From: Pseudomonadota bacterium
Lineage (GTDB): Bacteria > Pseudomonadota > Gammaproteobacteria > Methylococcales > Methylococcaceae
Direction of reading: 5' to 3'
Assembly (NCBI GenBank): GCA_040753975.1
Contig: JBFMDC010000026.1
Location: 1-18,033, forward strand
Length of the DNA stretch: 18,033 bases
Below the pieces are notes generated by a model. The model worked only from the letters and a program-made list of their open reading frames with translations, ran no database searches and was not told where the DNA came from. Within the stretch, counting starts at the first letter, position 1. Each line of letters opens with the position of its first letter. The position numbers were made by a program, and so were the translations under genes. Positions 1-18,033 of the stretch are shown one piece after another.

Positions 1-249
1 CGGGCTGTCCTGCCCGGCACCCTTCGGGCCAGTGCCAATCCGCTCCCGGCGGATTGGTCATGCCGGGCTGTCCTGCCCGGCACCCTTCGGGCCAGTGCCA
101 ATCCGCTCCCGGCGGATTGGTCATGCCCGGCTGTCCTGCCGGACACCCGGCGGGCCGGTGCCAGTCCGCTCCCGGCGGATTGGTCATGCCCGGCTGTCCT
201 GCCGGACACCCGGCGGGTCGGTGCCAGTCCGCTCCCGGCGGATTGGTCC
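1..249 (+). repeat. Tandem array of a 63-bp unit, about 4 copies. The first copy is truncated by the window edge. Copies 1-2 are identical; copies 3-4 are a shared variant. Each unit can fold into three short hairpins.
   Basis: Period 63 seen directly: unit starts at 60, 123 and 186, each beginning atgccgggctgtcctgcc. The same unit recurs at 17958-18033. Per-unit inverted repeats are ccgggc/gcccgg, ggcac...gtgcc and ccaatccgc-tcccg-gcggattgg. Confidence 0.85.
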
Positions 250-264: not shown

Positions 265-324
265 AATGACGACCAACCCAATTTCGACAAAGCCCCACTC
301 CAGGGTTTGTCAAACTTTGCGAGT

Positions 325-343
325 CCCCCGGCTAAGCCGGGGG
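325..343. repeat. Orphan hairpin cccccggc-taa-gccggggg. Its stem is identical to the subterminal hairpins of the IS200-like element at 11262-11281 and 11842-11861. It may be a REP-like element or the footprint of an IS end.
   Basis: Perfect 8-bp stem with a 3-nt loop. The same stem sequence appears at both IS200 ends. Confidence 0.5.
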
Positions 344-539
344 CTTTCCCGCGATAAATAAGCGAAAAACCGGGCATCCGGCCTCGTCGTCGGACCTGCC
401 TCCAGCACCCCCAATGCAAATCGACGCGGACAATCGCATTGGCATAGACTGAACTCCCGGGCAGGGACCGAGTCTGGCTTGCCGGTCGAGGACTCGGTAA
501 GGCGCTCGGGGCCACCGCTTACCGCCGAGAGCCAAGCCC

Positions 540-2323: not shown

Positions 2324-2582
2324 CGAAATATCTCCTTGGCGACCGCCAGCTTAGCGCCCTGAATTCAATAATGCCTGACAGAAATTGCTGAATCGGCGGA
2401 GCCACGTTTTGACGTCAATCACAGAACATTTACGAAATCGGGTTCCGCCCCAACATTTCTTTACTTTCTGAGCGGTGGCGATTTGTAGGGGGAAGATGAT
2501 CAGCAAAGAGTCGCTACCGCGACGATGATTTGAATCGGGTTTCCGCACCCGAAGGCGGGTTACTTTCTTTTGCTCGGCCAAA

Positions 2583-2610
2583 GACCAGTTTGCCGGGAGC
2601 AAACTGGGTC
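2583..2610 (+). repeat. Hairpin GACCAGTTTGC-CGGGA-GCAAACTGGGTC. It belongs to a CGGGA-loop hairpin family together with 16412-16439 and the tandem-repeat hairpin.
   Basis: 9-bp perfect stem plus a bulged extension. Loop and GAC…GGTC flanks are shared with the hairpin at 16412-16439. Confidence 0.45.
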
Positions 2611-2839
2611 GCACGGAGTGCGCCCGAAGGGTTTGCGGCAGGAAAGCCGCAAAACAGCGTAACCAAAGAAAAGGCCGCCCGACTGCCGCGAAGGCCCCCG
2701 AGCGCCAAGGCTTTTGTCGGGGGGCGATCGAAGGGGCTTCCGCCAGCGGCTGCGGGAATGCCAATACATCATTATGTGACTCTACTTTCGAGAAAGTTAG
2801 TAGCTCCGTGAGTTCCCATGCAGAATTTTGCTAGACTTT

Positions 2840-3453: not shown

Positions 3454-6400
3454 TCACTGAAAATCCCTGGACTTTACCACCAACCCGTCCAGCCATTTTC
3501 CGATATCTTCCAGCCGCCCGGCGACGAGGTGCAATACGCCCTCCTCCTGCTGCACGGTGCCGGATACCGCGAGGAGGTGGGCATACAGCAGCGCACGGCG
3601 TTGGGCCTGGGCGGTGGCGGGCCAGACGATGAGGTTGATCTGGCCGGTTTCGTCTTCGATCGTGACGAAGGTGGTACCGTTGGCGGTCATGGGGCGCTGC
3701 CGGCAGACCACGAGGCCGGCAACGCGGGCGATGGCGCCGTTCCTCACCTGCCACAAAGCTTCGGCGGTGCGGAAGCCGCGGCGGTCCAGCCGCTCCCGTA
3801 GGAGACTCAACGGATGGCGGCGCAGGCTGGCGCCGGCGGCTGCATAGTCGGCGATGACGTCCTCGGCTTCGCCCGGTTTCCTCAGCAGGGGCGCGGCTTC
3901 GGCGAATTGCGGTTCGGCATAGAGCGGGGTCGGCGCTTCCACGCCGGCGGCTTCCCAGAAGGCGCGATGGCGGTGGCCGCCGAGTCCGCGCAGTGCATCG
4001 GCGGCGGCCAGCGCTTCCAGCTCGCGGCGGTCGAGCCGGGCGCGGGTGGCTAAATCCTGGACGCTTTGGAACAGGCTCTGCCGGCGGGCTTCGCTCAGGC
4101 GTTGCGCCGCAGCGGACGAGAATCCGTTGACCAGGCGCAGACCCAGCCGAAGGGCCGGAACGGGCGAGTCACCCGGCTCCAGCGCACAATCCCAGTCGCT
4201 GTGGTTGACGTCGATCGGGCGCACTTCGACGCCGTGGCGGCGGGCGTCCTGGATGAGCTGGGAGGGGCCGTAGAAGCCCATGGGCTGGCTGTTGAGGAGA
4301 GCGCAGGCGAAGGCGGCGGGATGGTGGCACTTGAGCCAGGCCGAGACGTAGGCCAGGAGGGCGAAGCTGGCGGAATGCGATTCGGGGAAGCCGTATTCGC
4401 CGAAACCCTGGATCTGGCGGTAGATCTGGCGGGCGAAGCGCTCTTCGTAGCCGCGTTCGCGCATCCCGTCCATCAGCTTCTTCTCGAACGGCTCCAGCCC
4501 GCCTTTGCGGTGCCAGGCGGCCATGGCGCGGCGCAGTTGGTCGGCCTCGCCCGGCGTGAATCCGGCGGCGACCATGGCCAGTTGCATCACCTGCTCCTGA
4601 AAGATCGGCACGCCCAGCGTCCGCTTCAGCACCTTCTCCACATCGGGGCCGGGGTAGGACACCGGCTCCAGCCCGGCCCGCCGGGTAAGATAAGGATGCA
4701 CCATGTCGCCCTGGATCGGTCCGGGCCGGACGATGGCGATCTGGATCACCAGGTCGTAGTAGTTCTTGGGCCGCAGCCTCGGCAGCATGCTCATCTGCGC
4801 CCGCGATTCCACCTGGAACACGCCGATGCTGTCGGCCCGCTGCAGCATCTCGTACACCGCCGGGTCTTCCGGGGGGATGTCGGCCAGCGCGAACGGCCGG
4901 CCCAGCCCTTCGCCCACGTAGGCCAGCGCCTTGCGGATCGCGGTCAGCATGCCCAAAGACAGGACGTCGACCTTGAGCAGCCCCAGGGACTCCAGATCGT
5001 CCTTGTCCCACTGGATCACGGTGCGCTCGGGCATGGCGGCGTTTTCCACCGGCACCCAGTGCGACAGGTCCTCGGCAGCGATGACGAAGCCGCCCACGTG
5101 CTGGGACAGGTGGCGGGGAAAACCCACCAGCATCTGCACCAGGGCCAGCAGACGCCGCACCGCCGGGTTTTCGGACGCGAGGCCGGCTTCGGCCAGGCGC
5201 TCCGGCAATGTCTCCGCGACGCCGTGGCGGTCGAGCACCCGCGCCAGGGTGTCGATCCGCGACGGTGAAAAGCCCAGGGCGCGGGCGACGTCGCGCACCG
5301 CGCTCCTCACGCGGTAGGTGATGAGGCTGGCCGCCAGCGCCGCCCGGTGGCGGCCGTACTTGCGGTAGATGTACTGGATGACCTCCTCGCGCCGCTCATG
5401 CTCGAAATCCACGTCGATGTCGGGCGGCTCGTTGCGTTCCTTGGAGATGAAGCGCTCGAACAGCAGATCGAGCCGGGCCGGATCGACCTCGGTGATGCCG
5501 AGGCAATAGCACACCGCCGAATTGGCCGCCGATCCCCTGCCCTGGCACAGGATGCCACGGCTGCGGGCGAACTGGACCACATCATGCACGGTCAGGAAGA
5601 ACGGCTCGTAGGCCATGGCGCCGATCAGTTCCAGTTCGTGCCCGACCTGCCGCCGCACCTTGTCCGGCACGCCTTCCGGCCAGCGCTTGGCCATGCCTTG
5701 CCGGGTCAGCTCGCGCAGCCAATCGATGGCCGTGTAGCCGTCCGGCACCAGCTCGGCCGGGTATTCGTAGCGCAGTTCGTCCAGCGAAAACCGGCAGCGC
5801 TCGGCGATGCGCAGCGATTCTTCGAGGAGTGGCCGCGGATAAATCCGCGCCAGGGTCTCGACGGGACGCAGATGGCGCTCGCTGTTCGGAAACAGCGCGT
5901 AGCCGAGTTCCGCCAGCGGCTTGCCGAGGCGGATGGCGGTCAGGGTGTCCTGCAGCGGCTGGCGCTCGCGGGCGTGCATATGGACGTCGTTGCAGGCGAC
6001 CAGGGGGAGGCCCAGCCGATCGCCCAGCGCCTGTAGGGCGGCCAGGCGGCGGCCGTCCTCGCCGCCCAGGAACAGCTCGGCGCCGATCCAGCAGCGGGCC
6101 GGAAACAGCCGCGCCAGCCAGGCGCCGGTTTCGGCATCGGGCGCGTCTTCCGGCAGCCAGAGCGCGAGGCAATGGTCGAGCGCGTGGGTTTCGAGCTGAT
6201 GGCGGAGCAGCCGGTACCCGCCTTTCTCCGCCGCCCGCCGGCCCAGGGTGATGAAGGCCGCGAGCTGGCCGTAGCCGCGGCGGTCGGTCGCCAGCAGCAC
6301 CAGCTTGGGACCACCCTCCAGGCGGAATTCGCTGCCGATGATGAGCTTGAAGCCGAGTTGCTTGGCCTCGGCATGGGCGCGCACCGCGCCGGCCAGCGAG

Positions 6401-6522
6401 CATTCGTCGGTGAGCGCCAGGGCCGCGTAGCCCAACCGGGCGGCTTCGGCCACCAGCTCCTTGGGATGCGAGGCCCCGCGCAGGAAGCTGAAATTGCTCA
6501 GGGCATGCAGCTCGGCGAACAT
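3454..6522 (-). CDS. dnaE2: Error-prone DNA polymerase III alpha-subunit paralogue DnaE2 (ImuC), 1022 aa.
   Basis: It begins MFAELHALSNFSFLRGASHPKELV…LALTDECSLAGAV (PHP domain) and continues with pol III alpha motifs. The ORF-track ORF reaches 7122, but the conserved N-terminus starts at the ATG at 6522, 4 nt after the imuB stop. Confidence 0.9.
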   Translation of the reverse strand: MFAELHALSNFSFLRGASHPKELVAEAARLGYAALALTDECSLAGAVRAHAEAKQLGFKLIIGSEFRLEGGPKLVLLATDRRGYGQLAAFITLGRRAAEKGGYRLLRHQLETHALDHCLALWLPEDAPDAETGAWLARLFPARCWIGAELFLGGEDGRRLAALQALGDRLGLPLVACNDVHMHARERQPLQDTLTAIRLGKPLAELGYALFPNSERHLRPVETLARIYPRPLLEESLRIAERCRFSLDELRYEYPAELVPDGYTAIDWLRELTRQGMAKRWPEGVPDKVRRQVGHELELIGAMAYEPFFLTVHDVVQFARSRGILCQGRGSAANSAVCYCLGITEVDPARLDLLFERFISKERNEPPDIDVDFEHERREEVIQYIYRKYGRHRAALAASLITYRVRSAVRDVARALGFSPSRIDTLARVLDRHGVAETLPERLAEAGLASENPAVRRLLALVQMLVGFPRHLSQHVGGFVIAAEDLSHWVPVENAAMPERTVIQWDKDDLESLGLLKVDVLSLGMLTAIRKALAYVGEGLGRPFALADIPPEDPAVYEMLQRADSIGVFQVESRAQMSMLPRLRPKNYYDLVIQIAIVRPGPIQGDMVHPYLTRRAGLEPVSYPGPDVEKVLKRTLGVPIFQEQVMQLAMVAAGFTPGEADQLRRAMAAWHRKGGLEPFEKKLMDGMRERGYEERFARQIYRQIQGFGEYGFPESHSASFALLAYVSAWLKCHHPAAFACALLNSQPMGFYGPSQLIQDARRHGVEVRPIDVNHSDWDCALEPGDSPVPALRLGLRLVNGFSSAAAQRLSEARRQSLFQSVQDLATRARLDRRELEALAAADALRGLGGHRHRAFWEAAGVEAPTPLYAEPQFAEAAPLLRKPGEAEDVIADYAAAGASLRRHPLSLLRERLDRRGFRTAEALWQVRNGAIARVAGLVVCRQRPMTANGTTFVTIEDETGQINLIVWPATAQAQRRALLYAHLLAVSGTVQQEEGVLHLVAGRLEDIGKWLDGLVVKSRDFQ

Positions 6523-6526
6523 CGCT

Positions 6527-7999
6527 TCAGCCGAACAGGCCGTGCAAATGCCAGGGCCCCGCCGTCCCGGCGTCCCGGTAGATCCACAGCCGGGCCCCGG
6601 CGCCGTCGACCGCCACATGATAATCGCGCCGCACCGGCCCGCCGTCCCACCAGCCGGTTTCGATCCGCTCGCACTCGGGCAGGATGCGGATGTCCCGCTT
6701 GGATAAAAGCCGGGGCCGAGGCAGCAGCCACAGGGGCCGGGGCGACCGCGCCGCCGCGCCGCTGCGGGGTGCGTTGCCGGATGCCGCCCGCTCCGGCCGG
6801 TGATCGGCGCGGAGCACGGGCTGGCGCAAGGCCTGCGGTCCCAGCCGCGCCTGGAGGCGGTCGAGCAGTTCGTCCCAAGCCTCCCCGCTGGCCGCCTCGG
6901 GCGTGAACAGGTCCGCCATCGGCACGGCGAACGGCTGGAGGTCGGCGCTTCGCAGCAGCAAGCCCCGGACCGGGGCGGGCAGCGCCACCCGCTCCAGCCG
7001 CTGGCGCAGCAGGGCTGCGAATTGCCCGGCCTGCCGTCCTGCCCGGCGTGGCCTTGAGCAAACCCGCGTCGGCGCGGCGCGGGCATGCCGCAGTTCGAGC
7101 TCCAGCTCCGCGGCGACGGCATCGCGGCTCCGCAGGAAAGCCTCGAATTCCGCCAGCAAAACTTCGACCAGCGGGAAGACCTGGGTCAGGTCTTCGGTTT
7201 CCATCGCCAGTTCTCGCTCGGCGCGGAATCGGGGCGGGGCATGGAACTGCCGCAGCGGCTGGGGCCGGCTGCCCGCGGCCTCGTCCAGCCGCCGCAGCAG
7301 ATCGCGGCCATAGCGGCGCGCCAGACCGTCCCGCGGCATGCGCCAGAGATCGCGCAGCACCTGCAGTCCGGCACGGGCAAGACGGCCGGTGAGCTTATCG
7401 TCGATGCCCAGCGCGGCGACGGGCAGATCGCCCAGCGCGGAACGCAGCGCCTCAGCCTCGAGCACCGGCGCCGGGAACCCTGCCTGCGCCATCAGCCAGG
7501 CCGCCGCGGGCGTCGGCGCCAGACCGCATTGCACCGCGTGGCCGTCCGCCGCACGGCAGGCCGTTTCGGCCAGCGCCTCCGGCCCGCCGAACAGCCGCAG
7601 GCTGCCGCGTACCTCCAGTTGGAGGGTGGCCGGGAAGTCCAGGCTGATCCAAGGGGTGAAGCGCAGGCAGCGTTCCGCCAGCCGGGAAAGGGCCCGCCGC
7701 TCGGCCTCCGGGTCCCGGTTCACCGCCGTCAGCCCAGGACAGAGCGCCTGAGCTTCGGCCAAGGCCATGCCGGGGACGACACCCTGTGCTTCGGCTGCCG
7801 CCGAAGCACTGTGAACCAGGAGCCGGCCGCCACCGGCTTCGGTGACGGCGATCGGTTCGGACGCCGCGGCCCCTAAAGCCTCCAGCGCAAGCGCGGGGAA
7901 ATGCAGCGCCAGCCAGAGCGGCGCGGCCTCGGCCGGGGGGACCTCGCATGGCGGTTCCGCCGGGAGAGAAGGGGAATGGTAAGCGCGCGCGAGGGACAT
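6527..7999 (-). CDS. imuB: ImuB, a Y-family polymerase-like protein of the mutagenesis cassette, 490 aa.
   Basis: …LWLALHFPALALEALG… is the typical ImuB N-terminal motif. It sits between imuA and dnaE2. It has a Pro-rich leader of about 25 aa before the conserved start, with no alternative in-frame ATG. Confidence 0.85.
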   Translation of the reverse strand: MSLARAYHSPSLPAEPPCEVPPAEAAPLWLALHFPALALEALGAAASEPIAVTEAGGGRLLVHSASAAAEAQGVVPGMALAEAQALCPGLTAVNRDPEAERRALSRLAERCLRFTPWISLDFPATLQLEVRGSLRLFGGPEALAETACRAADGHAVQCGLAPTPAAAWLMAQAGFPAPVLEAEALRSALGDLPVAALGIDDKLTGRLARAGLQVLRDLWRMPRDGLARRYGRDLLRRLDEAAGSRPQPLRQFHAPPRFRAERELAMETEDLTQVFPLVEVLLAEFEAFLRSRDAVAAELELELRHARAAPTRVCSRPRRAGRQAGQFAALLRQRLERVALPAPVRGLLLRSADLQPFAVPMADLFTPEAASGEAWDELLDRLQARLGPQALRQPVLRADHRPERAASGNAPRSGAAARSPRPLWLLPRPRLLSKRDIRILPECERIETGWWDGGPVRRDYHVAVDGAGARLWIYRDAGTAGPWHLHGLFG

Positions 8000-8005
8000 G
8001 GCGCC

Positions 8006-8626
8006 CTACAGCACCAAGCGGACGCGCGCCCCGCCGAATCCGCCGCGGGCCTTGAGTATCCGCAGTTCCAGCCCGCCTTCGCAGACTCCGAGGCTCAGGC
8101 GCAACGCCGCCGTACCGCCGGCAGCACCGCCGGAGAACAGCATGCCGAGCGCGCCCCCTTCCCCCGCCGCCAGCTGCAGGCGGCGCCAGGCGGAGGGCGG
8201 CAGCGTCCGTGGCCAAGCCAGCACCAGGCCGGTCTCGGGATGGCGCAGCACCAGTTCCAGCGTCCAGCTCAAGTCCCGCTTGTGGTCCGCCACCGCCACC
8301 ACCAGCATCCGCCCGATCTCGACCCCGGCCTGGACCAGCGCCGGCGCGTAGGGCTCGAACGGCGGCGCGACCCACACCAGCCGGCGCCCATCCCCGGCGA
8401 TGCGCCGCATCAGCGGCAGTAGCAGCCGCAGTTCGCCGATGCCGTGGCTCGGCGCGACGATCTCGGTCAGGGCGCCCGCCGGCCAGCCGCCGCCCGGCAG
8501 CACCGCATCCAGCGCCGCATGGCCGCTGGGGACGACCGGCGCCCGCCAGGCTGCCGGCCGGCGCCCGCGCCAGACCCGGGGGTCGCGGTCCAGCAGCTCG
8601 GCCAGTGCCTCCACCTTCCCGGCCAT
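8006..8626 (-). CDS. imuA: ImuA (SulA/RecA-fold cell-division-inhibitor-like protein), 206 aa.
   Basis: The conserved start MAGKVEALAELLDRD…ALDAVLPGGGWPAGALTEI lies at position 106 of the longer ORF-track ORF (8006..8941). Its ATG overlaps the lexA stop by 1 nt (TGATG). Confidence 0.8.
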   Translation of the reverse strand: MAGKVEALAELLDRDPRVWRGRRPAAWRAPVVPSGHAALDAVLPGGGWPAGALTEIVAPSHGIGELRLLLPLMRRIAGDGRRLVWVAPPFEPYAPALVQAGVEIGRMLVVAVADHKRDLSWTLELVLRHPETGLVLAWPRTLPPSAWRRLQLAAGEGGALGMLFSGGAAGGTAALRLSLGVCEGGLELRILKARGGFGGARVRLVL

Positions 8627-9234
8627 CAGCCCACCCGGGTGCGGATCACGCCGACCACGATGCCTTCGATGCAAAGCGGCTGGCGTTCCAGATCGACGGC
8701 GATGACGGAAAACTCGGGATTGGCGGGCTCCAGATAGGCCACGGCACCCTCCAGCCGCAGGCGCTTCACGGTCACCTCGTCGTGGAGGCGCGCCACCACG
8801 ATCTGGCCGGAGCGGGCCTCCTGCGCCTGCTGCACCACCAGCAGATCGCCGTCGATGATGCCGGCGTCGCGCATGCTCATGCCCTGGACCCGCAGCAGAT
8901 AATCGCCCTTGTGCCCGAACAGCTCCGGCCCCAGCCGGCAATGGCGCTCGACCTGGGCCTCGGTCATCAGCGGCCGTCCCGCCGCGACCTTGCCGATCAG
9001 AGGGAGGTCCATGTCCTCGGCCTTGGCGAGCAGGCGGATGCCGCGCGAGGCGGAAGGGATCAGCTCGATCGCCCCCTTGCGCTCCAAAGCGCGCAACTGC
9101 TCCCGAACCCCATGAGGGGAGCTGACCCCGATGGCGCGGGCGATCTCGGCGATGGTGGGAGGAAAACCTTCGTCTTCCACGCTGCGGCGGATGCAGTCCA
9201 GGATTTCGCGTTGGCGGATGGTCAGGGGCTTCAT
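8626..9234 (-). CDS. lexA: LexA repressor, 202 aa from the second ATG. The first in-frame ATG is at 9243.
   Basis: The protein aligns end to end with E. coli LexA (MKPLTIRQREILD…; cleavage site VAAG; catalytic GMSMRDAGI Ser and VTVKRL Lys). Confidence 0.9.
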   Translation of the reverse strand: MKPLTIRQREILDCIRRSVEDEGFPPTIAEIARAIGVSSPHGVREQLRALERKGAIELIPSASRGIRLLAKAEDMDLPLIGKVAAGRPLMTEAQVERHCRLGPELFGHKGDYLLRVQGMSMRDAGIIDGDLLVVQQAQEARSGQIVVARLHDEVTVKRLRLEGAVAYLEPANPEFSVIAVDLERQPLCIEGIVVGVIRTRVG

Positions 9235-9248
9235 GCTCGGCATACGAA

Positions 9249-11149: not shown

Positions 11150-11875
11150 CGTCGGGGTCTCTCAAGAAACACGCCGGGCCGCCCCAAGTGTTTCTTGCCC
11201 ATTGATGGGTCAAAAACGGAGCGCAGCGGGTTTTTGGGGGTGGGCTAACTCATTGAGGTAAGCCCCCGGCTTTGGCGGGGGACTCACCGGGGTTTGACCT
11301 GTACGGCGGTCGTTGTGAACCTGAAATCTCGACCAAGAGATGGAGGTTCACGATGAAAGAGTACCAGAGTCTTTCCCCCACCAGATGGGGTTGTAAGTAT
11401 CACGTAGTGTTTATCCCGAAGCGGCGGAAGAAACAGATTTTTGGAGCGGTCAAGCGGCATCTTGGAGAGATATTTCATGAACTTGCCGGGCACAAAGAGT
11501 CGAAAATCGTGGCGGGCCACTTGATGGGGGATCACGTACACATGTGCATCAGCATACCGCCGAAGTGCGCGGTTTCGAGCGTGGTGGGCTAGATCAAGGG
11601 CAAGAGCGCGATCCAAATCGCCCGGCAATTTGGTGGTCGGCGGAGGAATTTCACCGGGGAGAATTTTTGGGCCAGGGGCTACTTCGTTTCCACGGTGGGC
11701 TTGGATGAGGCCATGGTTCGGGCATATATCCGCCGACAGGAACAGGAGGATGAGCGCCACGATCAGATGAAGCTTGGCCTGTAGGTGACCGCCTTGGGCG
11801 GCTCATGATTTTACGGCGCCTTTGAGGCGCTCACCCAATAAGCCCCCGGCTTTGCCGGGGGTGATTTAACTATTC
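11150..11875 (+). mobile_element. IS200/IS605-family insertion sequence, about 0.7 kb. Its boundaries are approximate.
   Basis: An HUH/Y1 tnpA is flanked by near-identical subterminal hairpins: gcccccggctttggcggggg at 11262-11281 and gcccccggctttgccggggg at 11842-11861. An additional left-end palindrome caagaaacac…gtgtttcttg lies at 11163-11197, as in IS200. There are no terminal inverted repeats, as expected for this family. Confidence 0.7.
11353..11784 (+). pseudogene. tnpA: IS200-type transposase TnpA interrupted by an in-frame TAG at 11590-11592. The stop falls between the HUH motif and the catalytic Tyr.
   Basis: MKEYQSLSPTRWGCKYHVVFIPKRRK…GDHVHMCISIPPKCAVSSVVG-TAG-IKGKSAIQIARQFGG…ENFWARGYFVSTVG…RAYIRRQ is read in a single frame. 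GGAGG lies 6 nt upstream of the ATG. The TAG sits where IS200 TnpA has a conserved Tyr (GYLKGKS). Confidence 0.75.
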
Positions 11876-12352
11876 GTTCCGCCCTTTTGTCCTCAAACTT
11901 CCCAGCGTCAGACGCAACACCGGACCCATCGGGCCTTGCCCCACCGAAGGTGCGGGTAAAGGTGCCTCCTCCTCTCGCCCCAAGGCCAGCATTTCCTTGT
12001 GTTCTTCCAGCAAGTGATGCAACAGCTTTAACGACAAAGAAGGCGGTAAAGCACCTCCGATGACGTCGATGAGGAATTGGCTGTGATCGCGCACCACCAC
12101 GTATTCTCTCGGCCAGGGCGCCGGGTAGTCCGCCAAGAGATCATTCATTTTCTCGATGTTGCCCCGTTCTTCTTCGGCGATATGGCCGAAGAGCCGCTGT
12201 TTGACCTCGGGGGAAATCGCCGTATCCCCCAGCAGTTCCAAGAGCATTTCAATATGTTCCCGAACGTTGTGGGCGATGCGGGACGCCTGCCCTCGAAGGG
12301 CCTCATCGTTCATCGCCTGTATCAGGCCTCCTTGCGGCAGCTTTGCGGTCAT
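11870..12352 (-). CDS. Encapsulin cargo protein. It is a putative hemerythrin-like (HHE, HxxxE x2) or diiron ferritin-like protein with a C-terminal family-1 targeting peptide. It is about 160 aa.
   Basis: The C-terminus …GPVLRLTLGSLRTKGRNE matches the family-1 targeting-peptide pattern (LxxGSLxx). HxxxE motifs are present (GHIAEEE, HHLLEEH). The ATG at 12352 overlaps the encapsulin stop (ATGA). Alternative starts are at 12373 and 12313. Confidence 0.6.
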   Translation of the reverse strand: MTAKLPQGGLIQAMNDEALRGQASRIAHNVREHIEMLLELLGDTAISPEVKQRLFGHIAEEERGNIEKMNDLLADYPAPWPREYVVVRDHSQFLIDVIGGALPPSLSLKLLHHLLEEHKEMLALGREEEAPLPAPSVGQGPMGPVLRLTLGSLRTKGRNE

Positions 12353-13197
12353 GGCCCGGTTTCCAAGGTACAAATGGCAGTGGGGCGCTTGATCCGGAGC
12401 ACGATGCTTTCATAGATCCTGAAGCCATAATTCATATTTCTTGGCCCCAGATAGGCGATACTGACATCCTCTGCGATCGCCAGATCGAAATTCTCAGGAC
12501 CACAGGAAACCACCACGGCCTGCTCGGGCTTCAGCACCGGCGACTGATAAACCCCATCCTCGCAGAGCTTGGTGATGGAATCGATCTCGATCACCGGCAT
12601 ATCCTTCTCGGTCTTCAGGAGTGCGGCGTAGAGTTGAGGCGAGAGCACCGCGGCGTAAGGCCGATGGTGATGGGCATCGAGCAGGGCCAAGGTGGCTTCG
12701 CGGATATTCACGTAGGCTTTGCCGAACTGATTCCAATCGAGCATTGGGGTCGTCAGCCTTTTTTCGGCATTCAAGAGGCCTTCCATGCCCAATTCCCTGT
12801 GGCCATGGTAGATCAGATCCTCTTCGCGATGGGCCAGGAAATGCGCCGCCCGCACGGCCCGGCTCACATCCAGGGGAGCGTCCAGGGCGCGGCTCAATTC
12901 CACGTCCCGCCAATGAAAGATGAAGTCCTTGTAGATCAACGGGATCCTTTTATAGACCTCGGATTCGGCCTGTATGACCCGGGCGTCCCGTCCGCCTTCC
13001 AGATCGACCTCCGCCAGAGCATCCACCCCGTAGGTCTCGTACGAGACCGTTTCCAAGCCCGCACCCAGCGGCCCGTATACGTCAATGAACCGCCTCGCCG
13101 TCAGCGTCCGCTGCATTTCTTTCAGGATTTCGGATTCCAGGCGCTGGCGTTGTGACTCGCTGAGTGGATACTCGACATTGCGTTGATAGCTTCGCAT
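12349..13197 (-). CDS. Family-1 encapsulin shell protein (HK97 fold; the family historically labelled linocin-M18 bacteriocin), 282 aa.
   Basis: It aligns along its length with T. maritima encapsulin: FIDVYGPLG~FVDVEGPYG, IPLIYKDFIFHWRDVELS~LPLIELRATFTLDLWEL, and C-terminal LRIKRPTAICTLE. GC is lower than in the flanking core genes. Confidence 0.85.
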   Translation of the reverse strand: MRSYQRNVEYPLSESQRQRLESEILKEMQRTLTARRFIDVYGPLGAGLETVSYETYGVDALAEVDLEGGRDARVIQAESEVYKRIPLIYKDFIFHWRDVELSRALDAPLDVSRAVRAAHFLAHREEDLIYHGHRELGMEGLLNAEKRLTTPMLDWNQFGKAYVNIREATLALLDAHHHRPYAAVLSPQLYAALLKTEKDMPVIEIDSITKLCEDGVYQSPVLKPEQAVVVSCGPENFDLAIAEDVSIAYLGPRNMNYGFRIYESIVLRIKRPTAICTLETGP

Positions 13198-16308: not shown

Positions 16309-16373
16309 AATCCAGGCGATCCGCCCTAACCGTTTCCGTGTCACACGCACGTCTCTTCCTACCCAGGAATCTG

Positions 16374-16397
16374 CGGTCGGAGACCGCCTCCTTTTTC
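16374..16397 (+). terminator. Candidate intrinsic terminator after the cytochrome c-FTR1 gene: GCGGTC-gga-GACCGC followed by CTCCTTTTT.
   Basis: A 6-bp GC-rich stem with a 3-nt loop is followed by a T5 run, 66 nt after the stop codon. Confidence 0.4.
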
Positions 16398-16411
16398 CTT
16401 CTCCCGCTGGG

Positions 16412-16439
16412 ACAAAACCGCCGGGAGCGGTTTTGGTCG
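16412..16439 (+). repeat. Hairpin GACAAAACCGC-CGGGA-GCGGTTTTGGTC, a member of the CGGGA-loop hairpin family.
   Basis: It has the same architecture as the hairpin at 2583-2610: same loop and same GAC…GGTC flanks, with compensatory stem changes. It is close to the reverse complement of the tandem-repeat hairpin (ccaatccgc-cggga-gcggattgg), again with compensatory differences. Confidence 0.5.
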
Positions 16440-16505
16440 AGTGGAGCTCGCCCGAAGGGTTCCGGGCTGGACGGCCCGGAAACAAAAGGTGGCCCGGAGG
16501 GCCGG

Positions 16506-17723
16506 ATGAGGGATAGAGACCGCACGGTTCCGGGGCACAATTCGAGGGCCGCGGGACCGTGCGGTCTCTCCCTGTTCGCCATGGTGCTGCTCCTTGCCGG
16601 CTGCCAGCACGCGACGGCGCCCGGGCCGGCTACCCCGGCGCGCGCCCCAAGCGACGCCTCGGCGCCGCCGCCCGCGACGGGCGACACCCGCTACGTTTTC
16701 GGGTGGGGCGAGCTGCCCGCGATCCTCGCCCAGCCGCGCGGTGGCAGCACGCGCGGGGCTCCGGTCACACTCGCACCGGGCCGGGCGCTACCGTTGCCGG
16801 AGATCGCCGCCGCGTCCGACGAATTCATCCAGGACCGGGCCGCGATCTTGGCGCTCGCCGGCGATTACAAGGTGAGTTTCCACTTCATGGAGTCGCTCGG
16901 GCTTGCACCCGACTACCAACCCACCAGGCCTTACCACTCGTGGGCCACTGAGCGCGTCGATGTGCTGGAAGACCGGGGGCGCTTCATCAGCCTTCAGCAC
17001 ACGCTCTTGATGTTTTTCAAAAACGCCGATGGCACGGTATCCGGGCCGGAGGTCGCGAAGCACTGGCGACAGGACTGGACCTACGAGGATACCGACCTCT
17101 ACACCTTCCGCGGCGCTTCCACCTGGTCGCGGCGCCGCGTCCCGGCCGCCGAAGCGGCCGGGCGCTGGTCGCTGGCCGTGTTTCAGGTCGACGATTCACC
17201 GCGCTACGAAGCACTCGGCCGCTGGGAGCACCGCGGCAACATTTCCGCCTGGACCAGCGAACGCGCCTGGCGTCCGCTCCCGCGTCGCGAACACACCGTG
17301 CGCCAGGACTACGACGTCATGGAGGGCATTCACCGCATCCTCCTCACCCCCACCGGCTGGCTCCATGAGCAGAACAACTTAAAACGCGTCGCGGGCGAAA
17401 CCGGCGAAGCGGCGCGCTTCGTCGGGGCGGAAATTGGCCTGGACCGCTACGAACGCATTACCGCGCCTAGTCTCGTTGCCGCGGACGAATATTGGAAGAA
17501 AACCGCCCGCTATTGGGCGGTGGTCCGCCGCGCCTGGGCCGAAGTGCTGGCGCGCCATGAGCGTTTCACGCTACGCACGGAAGTGGGCGGCAAAAAGCTT
17601 TTCGAGGAGCACCTGGCCTACGCCGAGAAGCTCGCGTCCGGCACGCCGTTCGACGCCGCTGACGCGGAAGGCCAGGCGCGAGCGACCCTCCGGAAATTCG
17701 TCACGACCAAGAAGCCCCCCTGA
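16506..17723 (+). CDS. Putative lipoprotein of unknown function (405 aa), probably co-transcribed with or functionally linked to the cytochrome c-FTR1 gene.
   Basis: GGAGG lies 5 nt upstream of the ATG. The signal region ends in the lipobox LLLAGC. The long ORF-track ORF (15636..17723) extends upstream through the FTR1 gene in another frame and is not credible. I recognise no characterised family confidently. Confidence 0.6.
   Translation: MRDRDRTVPGHNSRAAGPCGLSLFAMVLLLAGCQHATAPGPATPARAPSDASAPPPATGDTRYVFGWGELPAILAQPRGGSTRGAPVTLAPGRALPLPEIAAASDEFIQDRAAILALAGDYKVSFHFMESLGLAPDYQPTRPYHSWATERVDVLEDRGRFISLQHTLLMFFKNADGTVSGPEVAKHWRQDWTYEDTDLYTFRGASTWSRRRVPAAEAAGRWSLAVFQVDDSPRYEALGRWEHRGNISAWTSERAWRPLPRREHTVRQDYDVMEGIHRILLTPTGWLHEQNNLKRVAGETGEAARFVGAEIGLDRYERITAPSLVAADEYWKKTARYWAVVRRAWAEVLARHERFTLRTEVGGKKLFEEHLAYAEKLASGTPFDAADAEGQARATLRKFVTTKKPP
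16515..16569. other. 14-bp perfect inverted repeat AGAGACCGCACGGT…ACCGTGCGGTCTCT with a 27-nt spacer. It spans codons 4-21 of the lipoprotein gene.
   Basis: Read directly. The GCGGTC/GACCGC motif also forms the small hairpin at 16374-16388. Confidence 0.6.
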
Positions 17724-17806: not shown

Positions 17807-17854
17807 CCACCGGCAAAGCCGGTGGCTTTCGACGGCTGGCCCCTCCAAGGGGCC
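17807..17854 (+). terminator. Two back-to-back GC-rich hairpins downstream of the lipoprotein gene: ccaccggc-aaa-gccggtgg, then ggcccct-cca-aggggcc. They may be a terminator or REP-like.
   Basis: Perfect 8-bp and 7-bp stems. The first is followed by CTTTC, a weak U-tract. Confidence 0.35.
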
Positions 17855-17887
17855 TGACCGCCGTCGGGCAAAAGCCAAGTCGTCGCC

Positions 17888-17904
17888 CCGGCAGGGATTG
17901 CCGG
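17888..17904. repeat. Hairpin ccggca-gggat-tgccgg, the reverse complement of 248-264. It lies 54 nt upstream of the right-end tandem repeat.
   Basis: Exact reverse-complement match to 248-264. Confidence 0.6.
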
Positions 17905-17957
17905 GATCCAGTGGCCACGGATGGCTGCGACCTCACACCTCCCTGTGAGCTGGATTC

Positions 17958-18033
17958 ATGCCGGGCTGTCCTGCCCGGCACCCTTCGGGCCAGTGCCAAT
18001 CCGCTCCCGGCGGATTGGTCATGCCGGGCTGTC
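17958..18033 (+). repeat. The same 63-bp tandem-repeat unit as at 1-249, about 1.2 copies (units 1-2 type), truncated by the window edge.
   Basis: Identical to 60-122. The last 9 nt of the window equal its first 9 nt. Confidence 0.85.

Follow-up and report, generated by a model that had tools for sequence, protein, structure and literature searches.

To elucidate what the recurring CGGGA-loop hairpins of a Methylococcus-related MAG represent, we analyzed an 18,033-nt contig of that MAG in full (the window); the contig is also contained in the public runs SRR35774032, SRR35812110, SRR35810329, and SRR35808922. The preliminary description had proposed a family of dispersed hairpins with one loop and different stems, at 2583–2610, at 16412–16439, and in every unit of a tandem repeat. 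The hairpin at 2583–2610 (GACCAGTTTGC-CGGGA-GCAAACTGGGTC) was confirmed, and the second one also exists, although its true site is 16411–16438, one base to the left. Both contain the one-nucleotide bulge described earlier (a G in each case), and the tandem-unit sequence ccaatccgc-tcccg-gcggattgg is indeed the same hairpin on the opposite strand, differing from the 16411 copy by compensatory changes at two pairs. Chance occurrence does not explain these copies, with GCCGGGAGC found 7 times in the window against 0.82 expected and none of 200 shuffles reaching 7. The hairpin family is confirmed, but the hairpin does not stand alone: the CGGGA-loop hairpin is stem-loop H1 of a larger conserved structured RNA module of 63–78 nt.

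Comparison of the two dispersed copies revealed that their similarity extends beyond H1 alone, running for 65 nt with 71% identity (2592–2656 versus 16420–16484), and single-sequence folds recovered the same four hairpins. The module consists of H1 (loop CGGGA), H2, an invariant GCCCGAAGGG mini-hairpin (GCCC-GAA-GGGY), and H3 (loop CA-N-GGA-NG), in this order, with H1 being the first of three or four hairpins per module. It measures 75–80 nt, with a short form of 63 nt that lacks H2. GGA is present in the H1 and H3 loops of every window copy, with a spacing of 36–57 nt between the two loops, and the intrinsic orientation is the same throughout. The orientation flip between dispersed and tandem copies, highlighted in the preliminary description, merely reflects separate loci on opposite strands, all copies being in the GGA-loop orientation. 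A covariance-model scan, which had also been suggested there, detected seven copies in the window with the model R2, built from 98 copies without any window or Enterobacterales sequence (70, 66.3, 65.3, 62.7, 48, 27.7, and 23 bits; E values from 1e-3 to 2.5e-14). The next-best R2 match in the window scored 10 bits, and the opposite strand of the copies reached at most 10 bits with the covariance models. The two dispersed copies, A and B, comprise the following features.

2581–2658, plus strand: copy A, long type (R2 70 bits, E = 2.5e-14); its MFE fold consists of exactly the four hairpins
2583–2610, plus strand: H1 of copy A, GACCAGTTTGC-CGGGA-GCAAACTGGGTC, one-base G bulge
2611–2621, plus strand: H2 of copy A, GCAC-GGA-GUGC
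2622–2631, plus strand: mini-hairpin of copy A, GCCCGAAGGG
2632–2653, plus strand: H3 of copy A, loop AGGAAA
2542–2559, plus strand: predicted terminator-like hairpin with a T-rich tract on its 3' side, 23 nt ahead of copy A (consensus scan)
16409–16486, plus strand: copy B, long type (R2 62.7 bits, E = 1.1e-12; folds)
16411–16438, plus strand: H1 of copy B, GACAAAACCGC-CGGGA-GCGGTTTTGGTC, one-base G bulge
16439–16449, plus strand: H2 of copy B, GAGU-GGA-GCUC
16450–16459, plus strand: mini-hairpin of copy B, GCCCGAAGGG
16460–16481, plus strand: H3 of copy B, loop UGGAC
16373–16387, plus strand: predicted terminator-like hairpin and CTCCTTTTTC, upstream of copy B
16491–16503, plus strand: small hairpin GGCCC-GGA-GGGCC just 3' of copy B (inverted repeat found on the minus strand)

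Copy B lies between an FTR1/cytochrome c gene (ending at 16308) and a DUF6607 gene (starting at 16581), and the hairpin at 16491–16503 adds another loop GGA beside it. The H2 loop contains GGA in copies A and B and in none of 95 other copies. The H1 stems of both copies carry no U tract, and the 3' ends of the window copies are GTAACCAAAG (A), GGAAACAAAAGG (B), and GGCATGA (tandem units). A promoter scan of the window gave no convincing promoter for copy A or the arrays.

A pattern search over 185,579 genomes with GCCGGGAGC-N10-24-GCCCGAAGGG yielded at least 119 loci. Among the matches listed, approximately 84 were unique true copies, almost all from Gammaproteobacteria, and in these listed copies the stem sequences of H1, H2, and H3 vary while complementarity is retained. 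The pattern scan and two covariance models together gave at least ~100 copies from diverse Gammaproteobacteria, including enterics, Xanthomonadales/Lysobacterales, Pseudomonas, Halomonas, Thioalkalivibrio, Methylococcales, and sponge symbionts, with multiple copies per genome. A first metagenome scan with a 29-mer pattern gave no matches and a second one gave 51 loci; in viral contigs, 3 of 17 pattern matches were true copies, with an uninformative context.

In the MAFFT alignment A1, 85.2% of the cells were paired, whereas shuffles averaged 64.7% (none of 500 reached the observed value) and slid controls of this alignment gave at most 44% pairing. The second covariation set, comprising 95 distinct copies with the window and Enterobacterales left out, showed 88.7% paired cells compared with 65.5% in shuffles and both-sided changes in 20 of 25 pairs, and none of 500 shuffles matched it on any of five measures. 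In this set, H1 is 97% paired with 8 of its 9 pairs covarying, and the ~50 nt of the module past H1 covary too. The closing pair of the mini-hairpin is G:U in 45 copies, G:C in 39, and A:C once. GGA is present in 88 of the 95 H3 loops from other genomes, H3 having been left free in the search pattern, and the variant H1 loops CUGGA, CAGGA, and CCGGA all retain GGA. Pairing of CGGG in the H1 loop with CCCG in the mini-hairpin, as a pseudoknot, is not supported, because the variants preserve GGA but not the leading G residues of the loop. The 5' arm of H1 is A-rich and the 3' arm U-rich in many genomes. As the preliminary description had suspected, structure is conserved over sequence, which points to a functional, probably protein-binding, structured element, and among the options it had listed the evidence favors an RNA motif.

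TLRs ("tRNA-linked repeats") have been known in E. coli since 1978. The window module is a member of the TLR family, because R2, whose source copies include neither window nor E. coli sequences, recognizes the window copies as well as E. coli RrB (75 bits, E = 1.8e-15 on rrnB rrB). The nearest described members are the E. coli sRNAs RrA, RrB, and RrF, to which the window module is distantly related. RtT of E. coli tyrT is a distant homologue, with R2 scoring its four TLR repeats weakly (17–23 bits) on the correct strand. The preliminary description had missed both the larger module, with its homology to a known E. coli sRNA family, and a further copy at the right contig end (17958–18033, minus strand). 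The module family is captured by no Rfam model: no match was found at the elements in the whole window (E up to 1) or in 2540–2700 (E up to 10), and 18 loci from Pseudomonas, enterics, Halomonas, and others returned only tRNAs and int-alpA at the gathering threshold.

The window copies are not tRNA-linked. Their neighbors are protein genes, no tRNA or tmRNA (ARAGORN) and no rRNA or tRNA (Rfam) was found in the window, and the copies show neither an 18–19-nt repeat of an upstream stable RNA 3' end nor tRNA-like flanks. In other genomes, copies are located within tRNA/rRNA transcription units or directly before intrinsic terminators. At nine loci, corresponding to 14 of 105 copies (L012, L030, L058, L078, L082, L090, L113, L122, and L125), the module lies 50–90 nt downstream of a tRNA gene and ends in an exact 13–19-nt copy of the 3' end of that tRNA; a repeat of the upstream stable-RNA 3' end is also visible at E. 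coli rrnB. The tRNA-linked copies are flanked by the T-stem 5' strand with GTTCGA and by AATCC with the T-stem 3' strand, which places the module within the T-loop of an incomplete tRNA copy. This architecture hints at a hitherto undescribed mode of origin. A 5S gene is nearby only at the enterobacterial loci, so a general linkage to 5S rRNA was rejected.

Short-type units form tandem arrays at both ends of the contig, within a composite that has the following features.

1–248, minus strand: left tandem array of 63-nt short-type units without H2 (Tandem Repeats Finder, period 63, 3.9 copies at 3–248)
248–186, 185–123, 122–60, and 59–1, minus strand: units of the left array, the last one truncated by the contig end
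248–273, minus strand: 5' terminal inverted repeat of the composite, GTCGTCATTCCGGCAGGGATTGCCGG (inverted-repeat pair), as RNA a hairpin with loop AGGGAUU
280–349, minus strand: region resembling an IS200-like left end (local alignment to 11235–11360 and repeat families)
325–343, minus strand: hairpin CCCCCGGCTTAGCCGGGGG in this left-end-like region, which also contains GGGGGACTC
313–308, minus strand: TTGACA −35-like box with no convincing −10 box; the promoter scan found nothing here
17958–18033, minus strand: right tandem array, one full unit (18020–17958) and the 3' part of the preceding unit, truncated by the contig end
17905–17957, minus strand: composite tail, helix AUCCAG/CUGGAU around the hairpin CUCACA-GGGA-GGUGUGAG (17949–17932), from folds
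17879–17904, minus strand: 3' terminal inverted repeat, CCCGGCAATCCCTGCCGGGGCGACGAC, complementary to its 5' counterpart (inverted-repeat pair)
17807–17865, minus strand: region resembling an IS200-like right end, with a hairpin at 17865–17831 and the hairpin CCACCGGCTTTGCCGGTGG at 17825–17807 (alignment to 11770–11885 and a repeat family)

R2 scored the left array at 48, 23, 65.3, and 27.7 bits, on the minus strand only, and 17954–18022 in the right array at 66.3 bits; the left units were absent from every seed alignment. The H3 loop of the tandem units is AGGACA, and the two 5' units of the left array have an A:C mismatch in H1 as well as CCCGCCGGG in place of CCCGAAGGG. The 5' and 3' repeats of the resolved two-unit composite (L179, 9738–9512) pair as an 18-bp closing helix, and the loops of its fold (z = −5.25) contain two CGGGA, two AGGACA, and one GGGA. 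The composite tail is conserved in metagenome copies, and the motif of the 5' terminal inverted repeat bounds single-unit composites at 15 metagenome loci. The whole ~390-nt non-coding composite block is absent from M. capsulatus, 17807–17865 being the far boundary of the insertion relative to that genome, and a second copy is located 17.7 kb away. The similarity of the composite ends to the IS200-like ends is moderate (local alignment scores of 51 and 46). The left array is neighbored by a MoCF_biosynth gene and a BrkB/Rrf2 gene, while the right array adjoins DUF6607. Circularity of the contig, with the same repeat at both ends, was rejected because a near-identical JGI contig runs on past the left locus; the window represents a complete MAG contig broken in repeats. 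At the left locus, the window has at least 4 units and the JGI contig 2.

The most likely function of the module would be that of a CsrA decoy RNA. Taken together with the TLR identity, titration of CsrA is the best explanation of the observations, and we consider it fairly probable. GGA is displayed in several hairpin loops of the window copies, namely in H1 (CGGGA in all), in H3 (AGGAAA, UGGAC, and AGGACA), and in H2 of copies A and B. In the proposed mechanism, the module would be transcribed in the orientation that exposes GGA in both the H1 and the H3 loop, which could bind the two RNA-binding faces of the CsrA (RsmA) dimer, and the bound RNA would serve as a decoy drawing CsrA off mRNAs. 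The solo copies A and B have each gained a third GGA loop, in H2, and both follow terminator-like hairpins, just as rrB follows T1. The arrays of short units are carried in the inverted-repeat composite between IS200-like end hairpins, which would explain its insertion and duplication, and an array of n units, resembling a small CsrB or RsmZ, would offer approximately 2n+2 GGA loops.

The sole functional lead for TLRs is the binding of CsrA and Hfq by E. coli RrA, RrB, and RrF, which are made by read-through of T1 and co-purify with both proteins (PMC8144298). RrB binds both proteins in vitro, with a KD of ~100 nM for CsrA by EMSA and further evidence from MS2 pull-down, and changing GGA to UUU in RrA/B/F abolishes CsrA binding (PMC8144298). 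Against the decoy reading, the in vivo phenotypes of deletion or overexpression of rrA/B/F in E. coli were modest and contradictory, and CsrB out-competes RrB tenfold (PMC8144298). In our data, the GacA/UvrY box TGTAAG-N6-CTTACA, which drives classical Csr/Rsm sRNAs, showed the same score distribution in the 300 nt upstream and downstream of 88 copies, with none at the window copies. A crude terminator scan gave no enrichment downstream (16 of 83 versus 14 of 83); this comparison is uninformative, in part owing to upstream T1-like terminators that read on both strands. The A:C mismatch in H1 of the two 5' array units would be a G:U pair if read on the other strand, and in the composite fold the GGA hairpin of the 5' inverted repeat is consumed by pairing with the 3' repeat. 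E. coli tyrT RtT carries no GGA in the corresponding loops; therefore, CsrA binding cannot serve the whole superfamily.

Several other readings of the module were weighed against CsrA titration. The likelihood that the copies are ordinary intrinsic terminators, or GC-rich inverted repeats arisen by chance, is negligible: the genome is GC-rich, the window contains 327 inverted-repeat pairs, and the A-rich and U-rich arms of H1 in many genomes are terminator-like, but this reading is already refuted by the shuffles (0 of 200 with as high a motif count), the covariation, and the R2 scores (E values of 1e-9 to 1e-14 with no window sequence in the model), the window H1 stems being free of a U tract and the module covarying for ~50 nt past H1. 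We also regard it as quite unlikely that the module is a DNA-level mobile repeat, in which single-stranded DNA hairpins are recognized by a Y1 (HUH) transposase (IS200/IS605 TnpA or RAYT), covariation preserves a DNA hairpin, and the RNA has no trans-acting role. Because Y1 transposases work on a single strand, strand asymmetry by itself is compatible with such a reading, which is also consistent with the IS200-type tnpA pseudogene in the window, with the 26-nt inverted repeats that bound the array composite between hairpins of the same family as the IS200-like element ends, with the ~390-nt insertion relative to M. capsulatus and its second copy 17.7 kb off, and with the multiple module copies per genome. 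However, the IS-end-like hairpins belong to a sequence family distinct from H1 and H3, the Y1 gene falls below the RAYT model cutoff, and conservation of the module extends through a bacterial class, in genomes and contexts without a nearby Y1 gene, including fixed sites within tRNA/rRNA operons. What is conserved is the GGA loops and the four-hairpin architecture rather than a subterminal cleavage motif, and the E. coli homologue is an expressed, processed, CsrA-binding RNA (PMC8144298). A mobile element would account for the movement of the arrays and not for the conservation of the module.

An RNA-level cis element that does not titrate CsrA is unlikely in our estimate; such an element could be a stable-RNA processing or stability module, a tRNA-like substrate (of RNase E, RNase P, or 3' exonucleases), or an Hfq-dependent base-pairing sRNA, with the GGA loops serving another partner. 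In the E. coli study, cleavage by RNase E is proposed to be directed by the repeated 3' end and Hfq binding is reported (PMC8144298), which would fit, as would the nine loci with a tRNA 3'-end copy, the T-loop position of the module, and the existence of RtT members without GGA loops. The window copies, by contrast, have no nearby tRNA/rRNA gene or tRNA-like flanks, but H1, the mini-hairpin, and H3 persist in them and GGA loops have been added. GGA is the most conserved loop feature (88 of 95 H3 loops), and no target complementarity was identified.

If the module is a CsrA decoy, it is a candidate CsrA antagonist in many lineages without known Csr/Rsm sRNAs. Published TLR conservation is limited to Enterobacterales (PMC8144298); our analysis extends the four-hairpin module across Gammaproteobacteria beyond enterics, with abundant compensatory changes and near-invariant GGA loops, and indicates that it can leave the tRNA context and be amplified. 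A broader proposal, possible but doubtful, is that the TLR module represents an ancient Gammaproteobacteria-wide CsrA-decoy cassette, spreading either by insertion into the T-loop of partial tRNA copies or, as seen in Methylococcus-type methanotrophs, by riding on an IS200-derived miniature element, with possible amplification into tandem arrays. If true, it would constitute a transposable, copy-number-tunable sponge for a global regulator and could be the missing CsrB/RsmZ equivalent in lineages without a described Csr sRNA. The rrnB T1-T2 terminator cassette of many expression vectors contains one such module.

Comparison with known systems further defines the module. A type III toxin-antitoxin (ToxI-like) arrangement was considered, and no toxin-like ORF adjoins either array. 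Like REP/REPIN sequences, the hairpins are short intergenic palindromes, dispersed and clustered, with covarying stems and a Y1-family gene in the window, and the preliminary description had named a REP-like element as one option, with a search for RAYT genes as a check. That option found no support: the sole Y1 transposase gene of the window (11353–11781) is an IS200-type tnpA pseudogene (133.7 bits with NCBIfam transpos_IS200 and 34 bits with REP_Tyr_transpos, cutoff 80), and the hairpins flanking it, CCCCCGGC-N-GCCGGGGG (CCCCCGGCTTTG(G/C)CGGGGG), form a sequence family distinct from the CGGGA hairpins. The CGGGA hairpin is part of an asymmetric, class-wide module, which is not a REP/RAYT system. 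Miniature IS200/IS605 derivatives (PATE-like) resemble the predicted array carrier only, with IS200-like end hairpins bracketing the ~390-nt non-coding insertion; what sets the carrier apart is its cargo, a structured RNA array that has inverted repeats of its own.

CsrB, CsrC, RsmX, RsmY, and RsmZ contain several hairpins with the repeated loop (C)A-N-GGA-N-G, which is the working mode proposed for the module. Neither the window nor the 18 loci of other genomes matched an Rfam Csr or Rsm family. Unlike these sRNAs, the module has fixed four-hairpin units and no GacA/UvrY box, and many copies are co-transcribed with tRNA or rRNA, in contrast to Csr/Rsm sRNAs with a Gac-dependent promoter. Two reported RNAs were rejected as the same RNA: RsmU of Xanthomonas (PMC7694677), whose probe primers and locus (3' UTR of comEA) do not match, and CsrR1 of Alcanivorax (5' UTR of hfq, PMC9788540), as the Alloalcanivorax copy (L019) lies in a different context. 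RtT (Rfam RF00391; rttR in E. coli K-12) shares H2, (G/A)CCCGAAGGG, and H3 with the module, and its T-loop-insertion architecture and upstream ATGAGAAC motif recur in the tRNA-linked copies of other genomes, but its loops carry no GGA and its 178-nt units are linked to tRNA-Tyr. The Rfam RtT model (gathering score 45 bits) missed the window copies when all 18,033 nt were searched at E up to 1 and when 2540–2700 was searched at E up to 10, and gave a weak full-length match of 21 bits to E. coli rrB.

The closest described elements are RrA, RrB, and RrF, the TLR elements located between T1 and T2 of E. coli rrnA, rrnB, and rrnD (Stenum et al. 2021, PMC8144298), with CsrA and Hfq binding shown only for RrB. 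Unlike rrB, the window copies lie outside an rRNA operon and have no copy of an upstream stable-RNA 3' end, copies A and B contain an extra GGA in H2, and the short units lack H2 and are tandemly repeated. E. coli rrB shares the H1 loop CGGGA, H2, GGCCCG(A/G)AGGG, and the H3 loop AGGAC with the window module. Both have GGA in the H1 and H3 loops and a terminator-like hairpin upstream, the predicted one at 2542–2559 before copy A resembling the rrnB layout, in which terminator T1 is upstream of rrB.

Analysis of the window revealed two dispersed hairpins with CGGGA loops. The first, GACCAGTTTGC-CGGGA-GCAAACTGGGTC, occupies 2583–2610, as the preliminary description had it; the second, GACAAAACCGC-CGGGA-GCGGTTTTGGTC, is likewise present, but had been placed at 16412–16439, whereas its true position, 16411–16438, lies one base to the left. 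Each tandem unit carries the proposed opposite-strand hairpin, ccaatccgc-tcccg-gcggattgg, and the stem differences among the hairpin copies are indeed compensatory. A chance origin was tested with the 9-mer GCCGGGAGC, which occurs 7 times against 0.82 expected, a count attained by none of 200 dinucleotide shuffles. The copies and the insertion sequence in the window are as follows:

2581–2658, plus strand: copy A, dispersed long-type module; its spacer of 530 nt has an AraC-type gene on one side and a DUF2442/DUF4160 pair on the other
16409–16486, plus strand: copy B, dispersed module flanked by an FTR1-cytochrome c gene and by a DUF6607 gene whose start codon lies 95 nt downstream
1–248, minus strand: left array, unit of 63 nt in 3.9 copies over 3–248 (Tandem Repeats Finder)
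17958–18033, minus strand: right array, an extra hairpin copy at the opposite contig end
11257–11861: IS200-type insertion sequence with tnpA at 11353–11781 and direct flanking hairpins AAGCCCCCGGCTTTGGCGGGGG and AAGCCCCCGGCTTTGCCGGGGG

Copies A and B are alike over 65 nt (71% identity, repeat family D4), and the tandem unit is co-linear with both in its minus-strand reading. Folding each sequence singly gave four hairpins per module: H1 (9–11 bp, loop CGGGA), a short H2 (GCAC-GGA-GUGC in copy A, GAGU-GGA-GCUC in copy B), a mini-hairpin of sequence GCCC-GAA-GGG, and H3, with loop AGGAAA (copy A), UGGAC (copy B) or AGGACA (tandem units). At 63 nt, the tandem units represent a short form of the module in which H2 is missing. 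GGA is found in every main loop of the window modules; the H2 loop is GGA in copies A and B, compared with 0 of 95 other copies.

A pattern search and a covariance-model scan, the kinds of check suggested in the preliminary description, recovered relatives with covarying stems. The pattern GCCGGGAGC-N10-24-GCCCGAAGGG, which fixes 19 bases and leaves the H1, H2 and H3 stems and the H3 loop unconstrained, matched at least 119 loci in 185,579 genomes (one genome per species). After filtering for H1 complementarity, at least about 84 unique true copies remained among the matches listed, nearly all from Gammaproteobacteria, in which the module is widespread. The carriers include Thioalkalivibrio, Methylobacter, Methylomonas, Saccharospirillum, Halomonas, Alloalcanivorax, the Pseudomonas/Stutzerimonas group, Stenotrophomonas, Rhodanobacteraceae, Lysobacterales, Arenicellales, sponge symbionts, Thiotrichales, Serratia, Kluyvera, Brenneria and Pectobacterium. 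Chance matches without the hairpins came from Actinobacteria, Myxococcota and similar groups.

Comparative alignment revealed that the CGGGA hairpin belongs, as one stem-loop, to an RNA-type module of four covarying hairpins; among the options raised earlier, the evidence favors an RNA motif. In A1, for which 70 long-type copies were aligned with MAFFT, RNAalifold recovered H1, the mini-hairpin and H3, and H2 was put into the structure by hand before pairs were counted; standard pairs made up 85.2% of cells, compared with 64.7% after shuffling (0 of 500 shuffles equal), and sliding the 3' partner by 1–3 columns as a control gave at most 44%. A second alignment, A2, comprises 98 copies gathered and aligned with R1, a covariance model from A1, with the window and all Enterobacterales excluded. 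In its 95 distinct rows, 88.7% of cells are paired (65.5% shuffled) and two-sided changes occur in 20 of 25 pairs; in H1, pairing reaches 97% and 8 of 9 pairs covary, and none of 500 shuffles matched the observed value on any of five measures. A2 is fitted to its model and hence biased toward it, and the unfitted MAFFT result is concordant.

With filters off, the covariance models gave the window copies 21–70 bits in the GGA-loop orientation and at most 10 bits elsewhere in the window, the opposite strand of the same sites included. The closing pair of the mini-hairpin is G:U in 45 copies, G:C in 39 and A:C in only 1, the pattern expected of an RNA helix on the GGA strand. GGA is present in the H3 loop of 88 of the 95 copies, with the consensus CA-N-GGA-N-G (CAGGGAUG in 26 copies, CAUGGAUG in 15, CAGGAUG in 11), and is retained in the rare H1 loop variants CUGGA, CAGGA and CCGGA. 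This H3 consensus fits the CsrA/RsmE binding consensus, (A/U)CANGGANG(U/A) shown in a hairpin loop, and the H1-to-H3 GGA distance of 36–57 nt falls in the range that a CsrA dimer can span.

Among the relatives, locus L077 turned out to be the part of the E. coli rrnB operon enclosed by terminators T1 and T2. It was located by BLAST, unannotated and sitting between rrf and murB, in 3,983 of 5,426 complete E. coli genomes (median 2 places per genome). The rrnB T1–T2 sequences have been described as tRNA-linked repeats (TLRs), with 22 copies at 10 loci in K-12, whose hallmark is a final stretch of 18–19 nt identical to the 3' terminus of the tRNA or rRNA upstream (Stenum et al. 2021, PMC8144298). 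The copies of rrnA, rrnB and rrnD are the sRNAs RrA, RrB and RrF, which arise by T1 read-through, bind CsrA in vitro (KD ~100 nM; GGA-to-UUU mutants lose binding), also bind Hfq, and have modest in vivo phenotypes; their conservation was reported within Enterobacterales only (PMC8144298). Rfam holds no model for RrA, RrB or RrF, and its RtT model (tyrT TLRs) matches rrB weakly over the full length, reaching 21 bits where the gathering score is 45. R2, a model built from A2 and therefore independent of the window and of E. coli, scored E. coli rrB at 75 bits (E 1.8e-15), copy A at 70 bits, copy B at 62.7 bits, the tandem units at 66.3, 65.3, 48, 27.7 and 23 bits, and all 4 tyrT repeats at 17–23 bits on the correct strand. 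These scores therefore place the window elements and RrB in one family, with RtT as a distant branch. That the window module is homologous to RrA, RrB and RrF and belongs to the TLR family is close to certain.

A tRNA linkage was also found outside enterics. ARAGORN and model matches placed 14 of 105 copies, at nine loci (L012, L030, L058, L078, L082, L090, L113, L122 and L125), 50–90 nt downstream of a same-strand tRNA gene; every one of them ends in an exact 13–19-nt repeat of that tRNA's 3' end. Their 5' flank is a repeat of the T-stem 5' strand followed by GTTCGA, and their 3' end reads AATCC followed by the T-stem 3' strand, the acceptor 3' strand and CCA. Since these flanks track the individual upstream tRNA (e.g., TTCAATT in a tRNA-Met), the module is embedded in the T-loop of an incomplete tRNA copy. 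The same layout, CCAAGG-TTCGA-[module]-AATCCTTCCCCCACCACCA, is seen in the E. coli RtT unit (L127). A conserved ATGAGAAC motif occurs further 5' of the tRNA-linked copies and likewise in E. coli RtT. Other copies resemble stand-alone sRNA genes, with 1–4 units directly followed by an intrinsic terminator, as in Stenotrophomonas, Pseudomonas xionganensis and Bacterioplanes.

Both window ends break within tandem arrays. The left locus, with at least 4 units in the window, was resolved by a 99.7%-identical JGI contig, whose minus strand shows, in order, the inverted repeat GTCGTCATTCCGGCAGGGATTGCCGG of 26 nt, two units, a tail of 53 nt bearing a GGGA-loop hairpin, and the complementary inverted repeat. 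As RNA, this two-unit composite folds at −137 kcal/mol (z = −5.25), with the inverted repeats paired and the loops showing CGGGA twice, AGGACA twice and GGGA. The same inverted repeats lie at 248–273 and 17879–17904 in the window, and single-unit composites of this type occur in many metagenome contigs. In one of them (L147, 1300–1700), the loops of both terminal inverted-repeat hairpins hold an extra ~45-nt palindrome (CAATCGCAAACGGTCGT...ACGACCCTTCC), which looks like a second small element targeting these hairpins. The two 5'-most units of the left array (123–248, minus strand) have an A:C mismatch in H1 (GCGGACTGG). This mismatch, which would read as G:U with the plus strand folded and is absent from the near-identical JGI strain, is a weak hint bearing on transcription direction.

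The arrays constitute an insertion specific to the window lineage. Over 21 kb of synteny, no copy is present in M. capsulatus Bath or in a second strain, and the MoCF–brkB spacer, 170 nt in M. capsulatus strains, holds a ~390-nt insertion in the window lineage. The insertion is bounded by hairpins CCCCCGGCTAAGCCGGGGG (325–343) and CCACCGGCAAAGCCGGTGG (17807–17825) of the same family as those flanking tnpA. The suggested link to REP-associated tyrosine transposases (RAYT) is not supported in the window, where the only Y1 gene is IS200-type: tnpA, broken by an in-frame TAG at 11590–11592 with a Pfam Y1_Tnp match in both halves, scored 133.7 bits on NCBIfam transpos_IS200 and 34 bits on the RAYT model (cutoff 80). 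The array-adjoining regions align with moderate similarity to the left and right ends of the IS200-like element, so the array composite appears to have been carried by an IS200-derived miniature element, and an IS200-type transposase may have mobilised the insertion.

As to the setting, the window is one complete contig of an NCBI MAG. Its BrkB-like protein is 93–94% identical to Methylococcus proteins, and the dnaE2–brkB segment differs from M. capsulatus Bath and is therefore a variable region. A LexA-linked mutagenesis cassette (lexA, imuA-like, imuB with an IMS domain, dnaE2; 3454–9243) adjoins the DUF4160/DUF2442 pair, and an encapsulin gene lies at 12349–13197. Copy A has two occurrences of the motif (C)GAAAT(C/T)GGGTT(T)CCGC upstream of it (2434–2450 and 2530–2547), and a similar CGAAATTGGGTT lies upstream of the left array (281–291, minus strand), with a TTGAC(G/A) box ahead in 2 of 3 cases. 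Possibly a common promoter or leader element, the motif was not detected by a sigma-70 scan. A long near-perfect hairpin without a U tract (AGAGACCGCACGGT...ACCGTGCGGTCTCT, 16516–16568) stops 12 nt short of the DUF6607 start codon and is weakly matched on both strands by the miRNA model mir-Ro6-3, a generic long-hairpin match.

In the window organism, the module would be transcribed in the GGA orientation and would bind CsrA, and the arrays might act as multi-site sponges. Against the CsrA reading stand the weak E. coli phenotypes, the RtT members without GGA loops, the A:C mismatch in two array units (G:U on the other strand), a promoter scan that gave no convincing promoter for copy A or for the arrays, and the absent Gac box; upstream of the module copies in general, GacA/UvrY boxes showed no enrichment. 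Taken together, identity and CsrA-decoy mechanism as a joint claim seem to us moderately probable. The sole near-consensus GacA/UvrY-like box upstream of any copy, TTTAAGCGGCGGCTTACG (10 of 12 positions, ~103 nt upstream), occurs at L088 and L121, both on the Arenicellales chromosome OY843749.1, a genome that also has several tandem arrays.

Compared with the TLR hallmark, the window copies are without stable-RNA linkage: ARAGORN and Rfam found no tRNA or rRNA gene in the 18,033-bp window, and the hallmark is therefore missing here. Similar to RrB, which T1 precedes, copies A and B also follow a terminator-like hairpin with a T-rich tract. The kind of element is already known from TLRs and RrA, RrB and RrF. 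Relative to the literature searched, the class-wide distribution with a defined covarying structure, the absence from Rfam, the T-loop-embedded architecture beyond E. coli, and the free-standing and tandemly amplified forms, one of them between IS200-like ends in a methanotroph, appear to be new.
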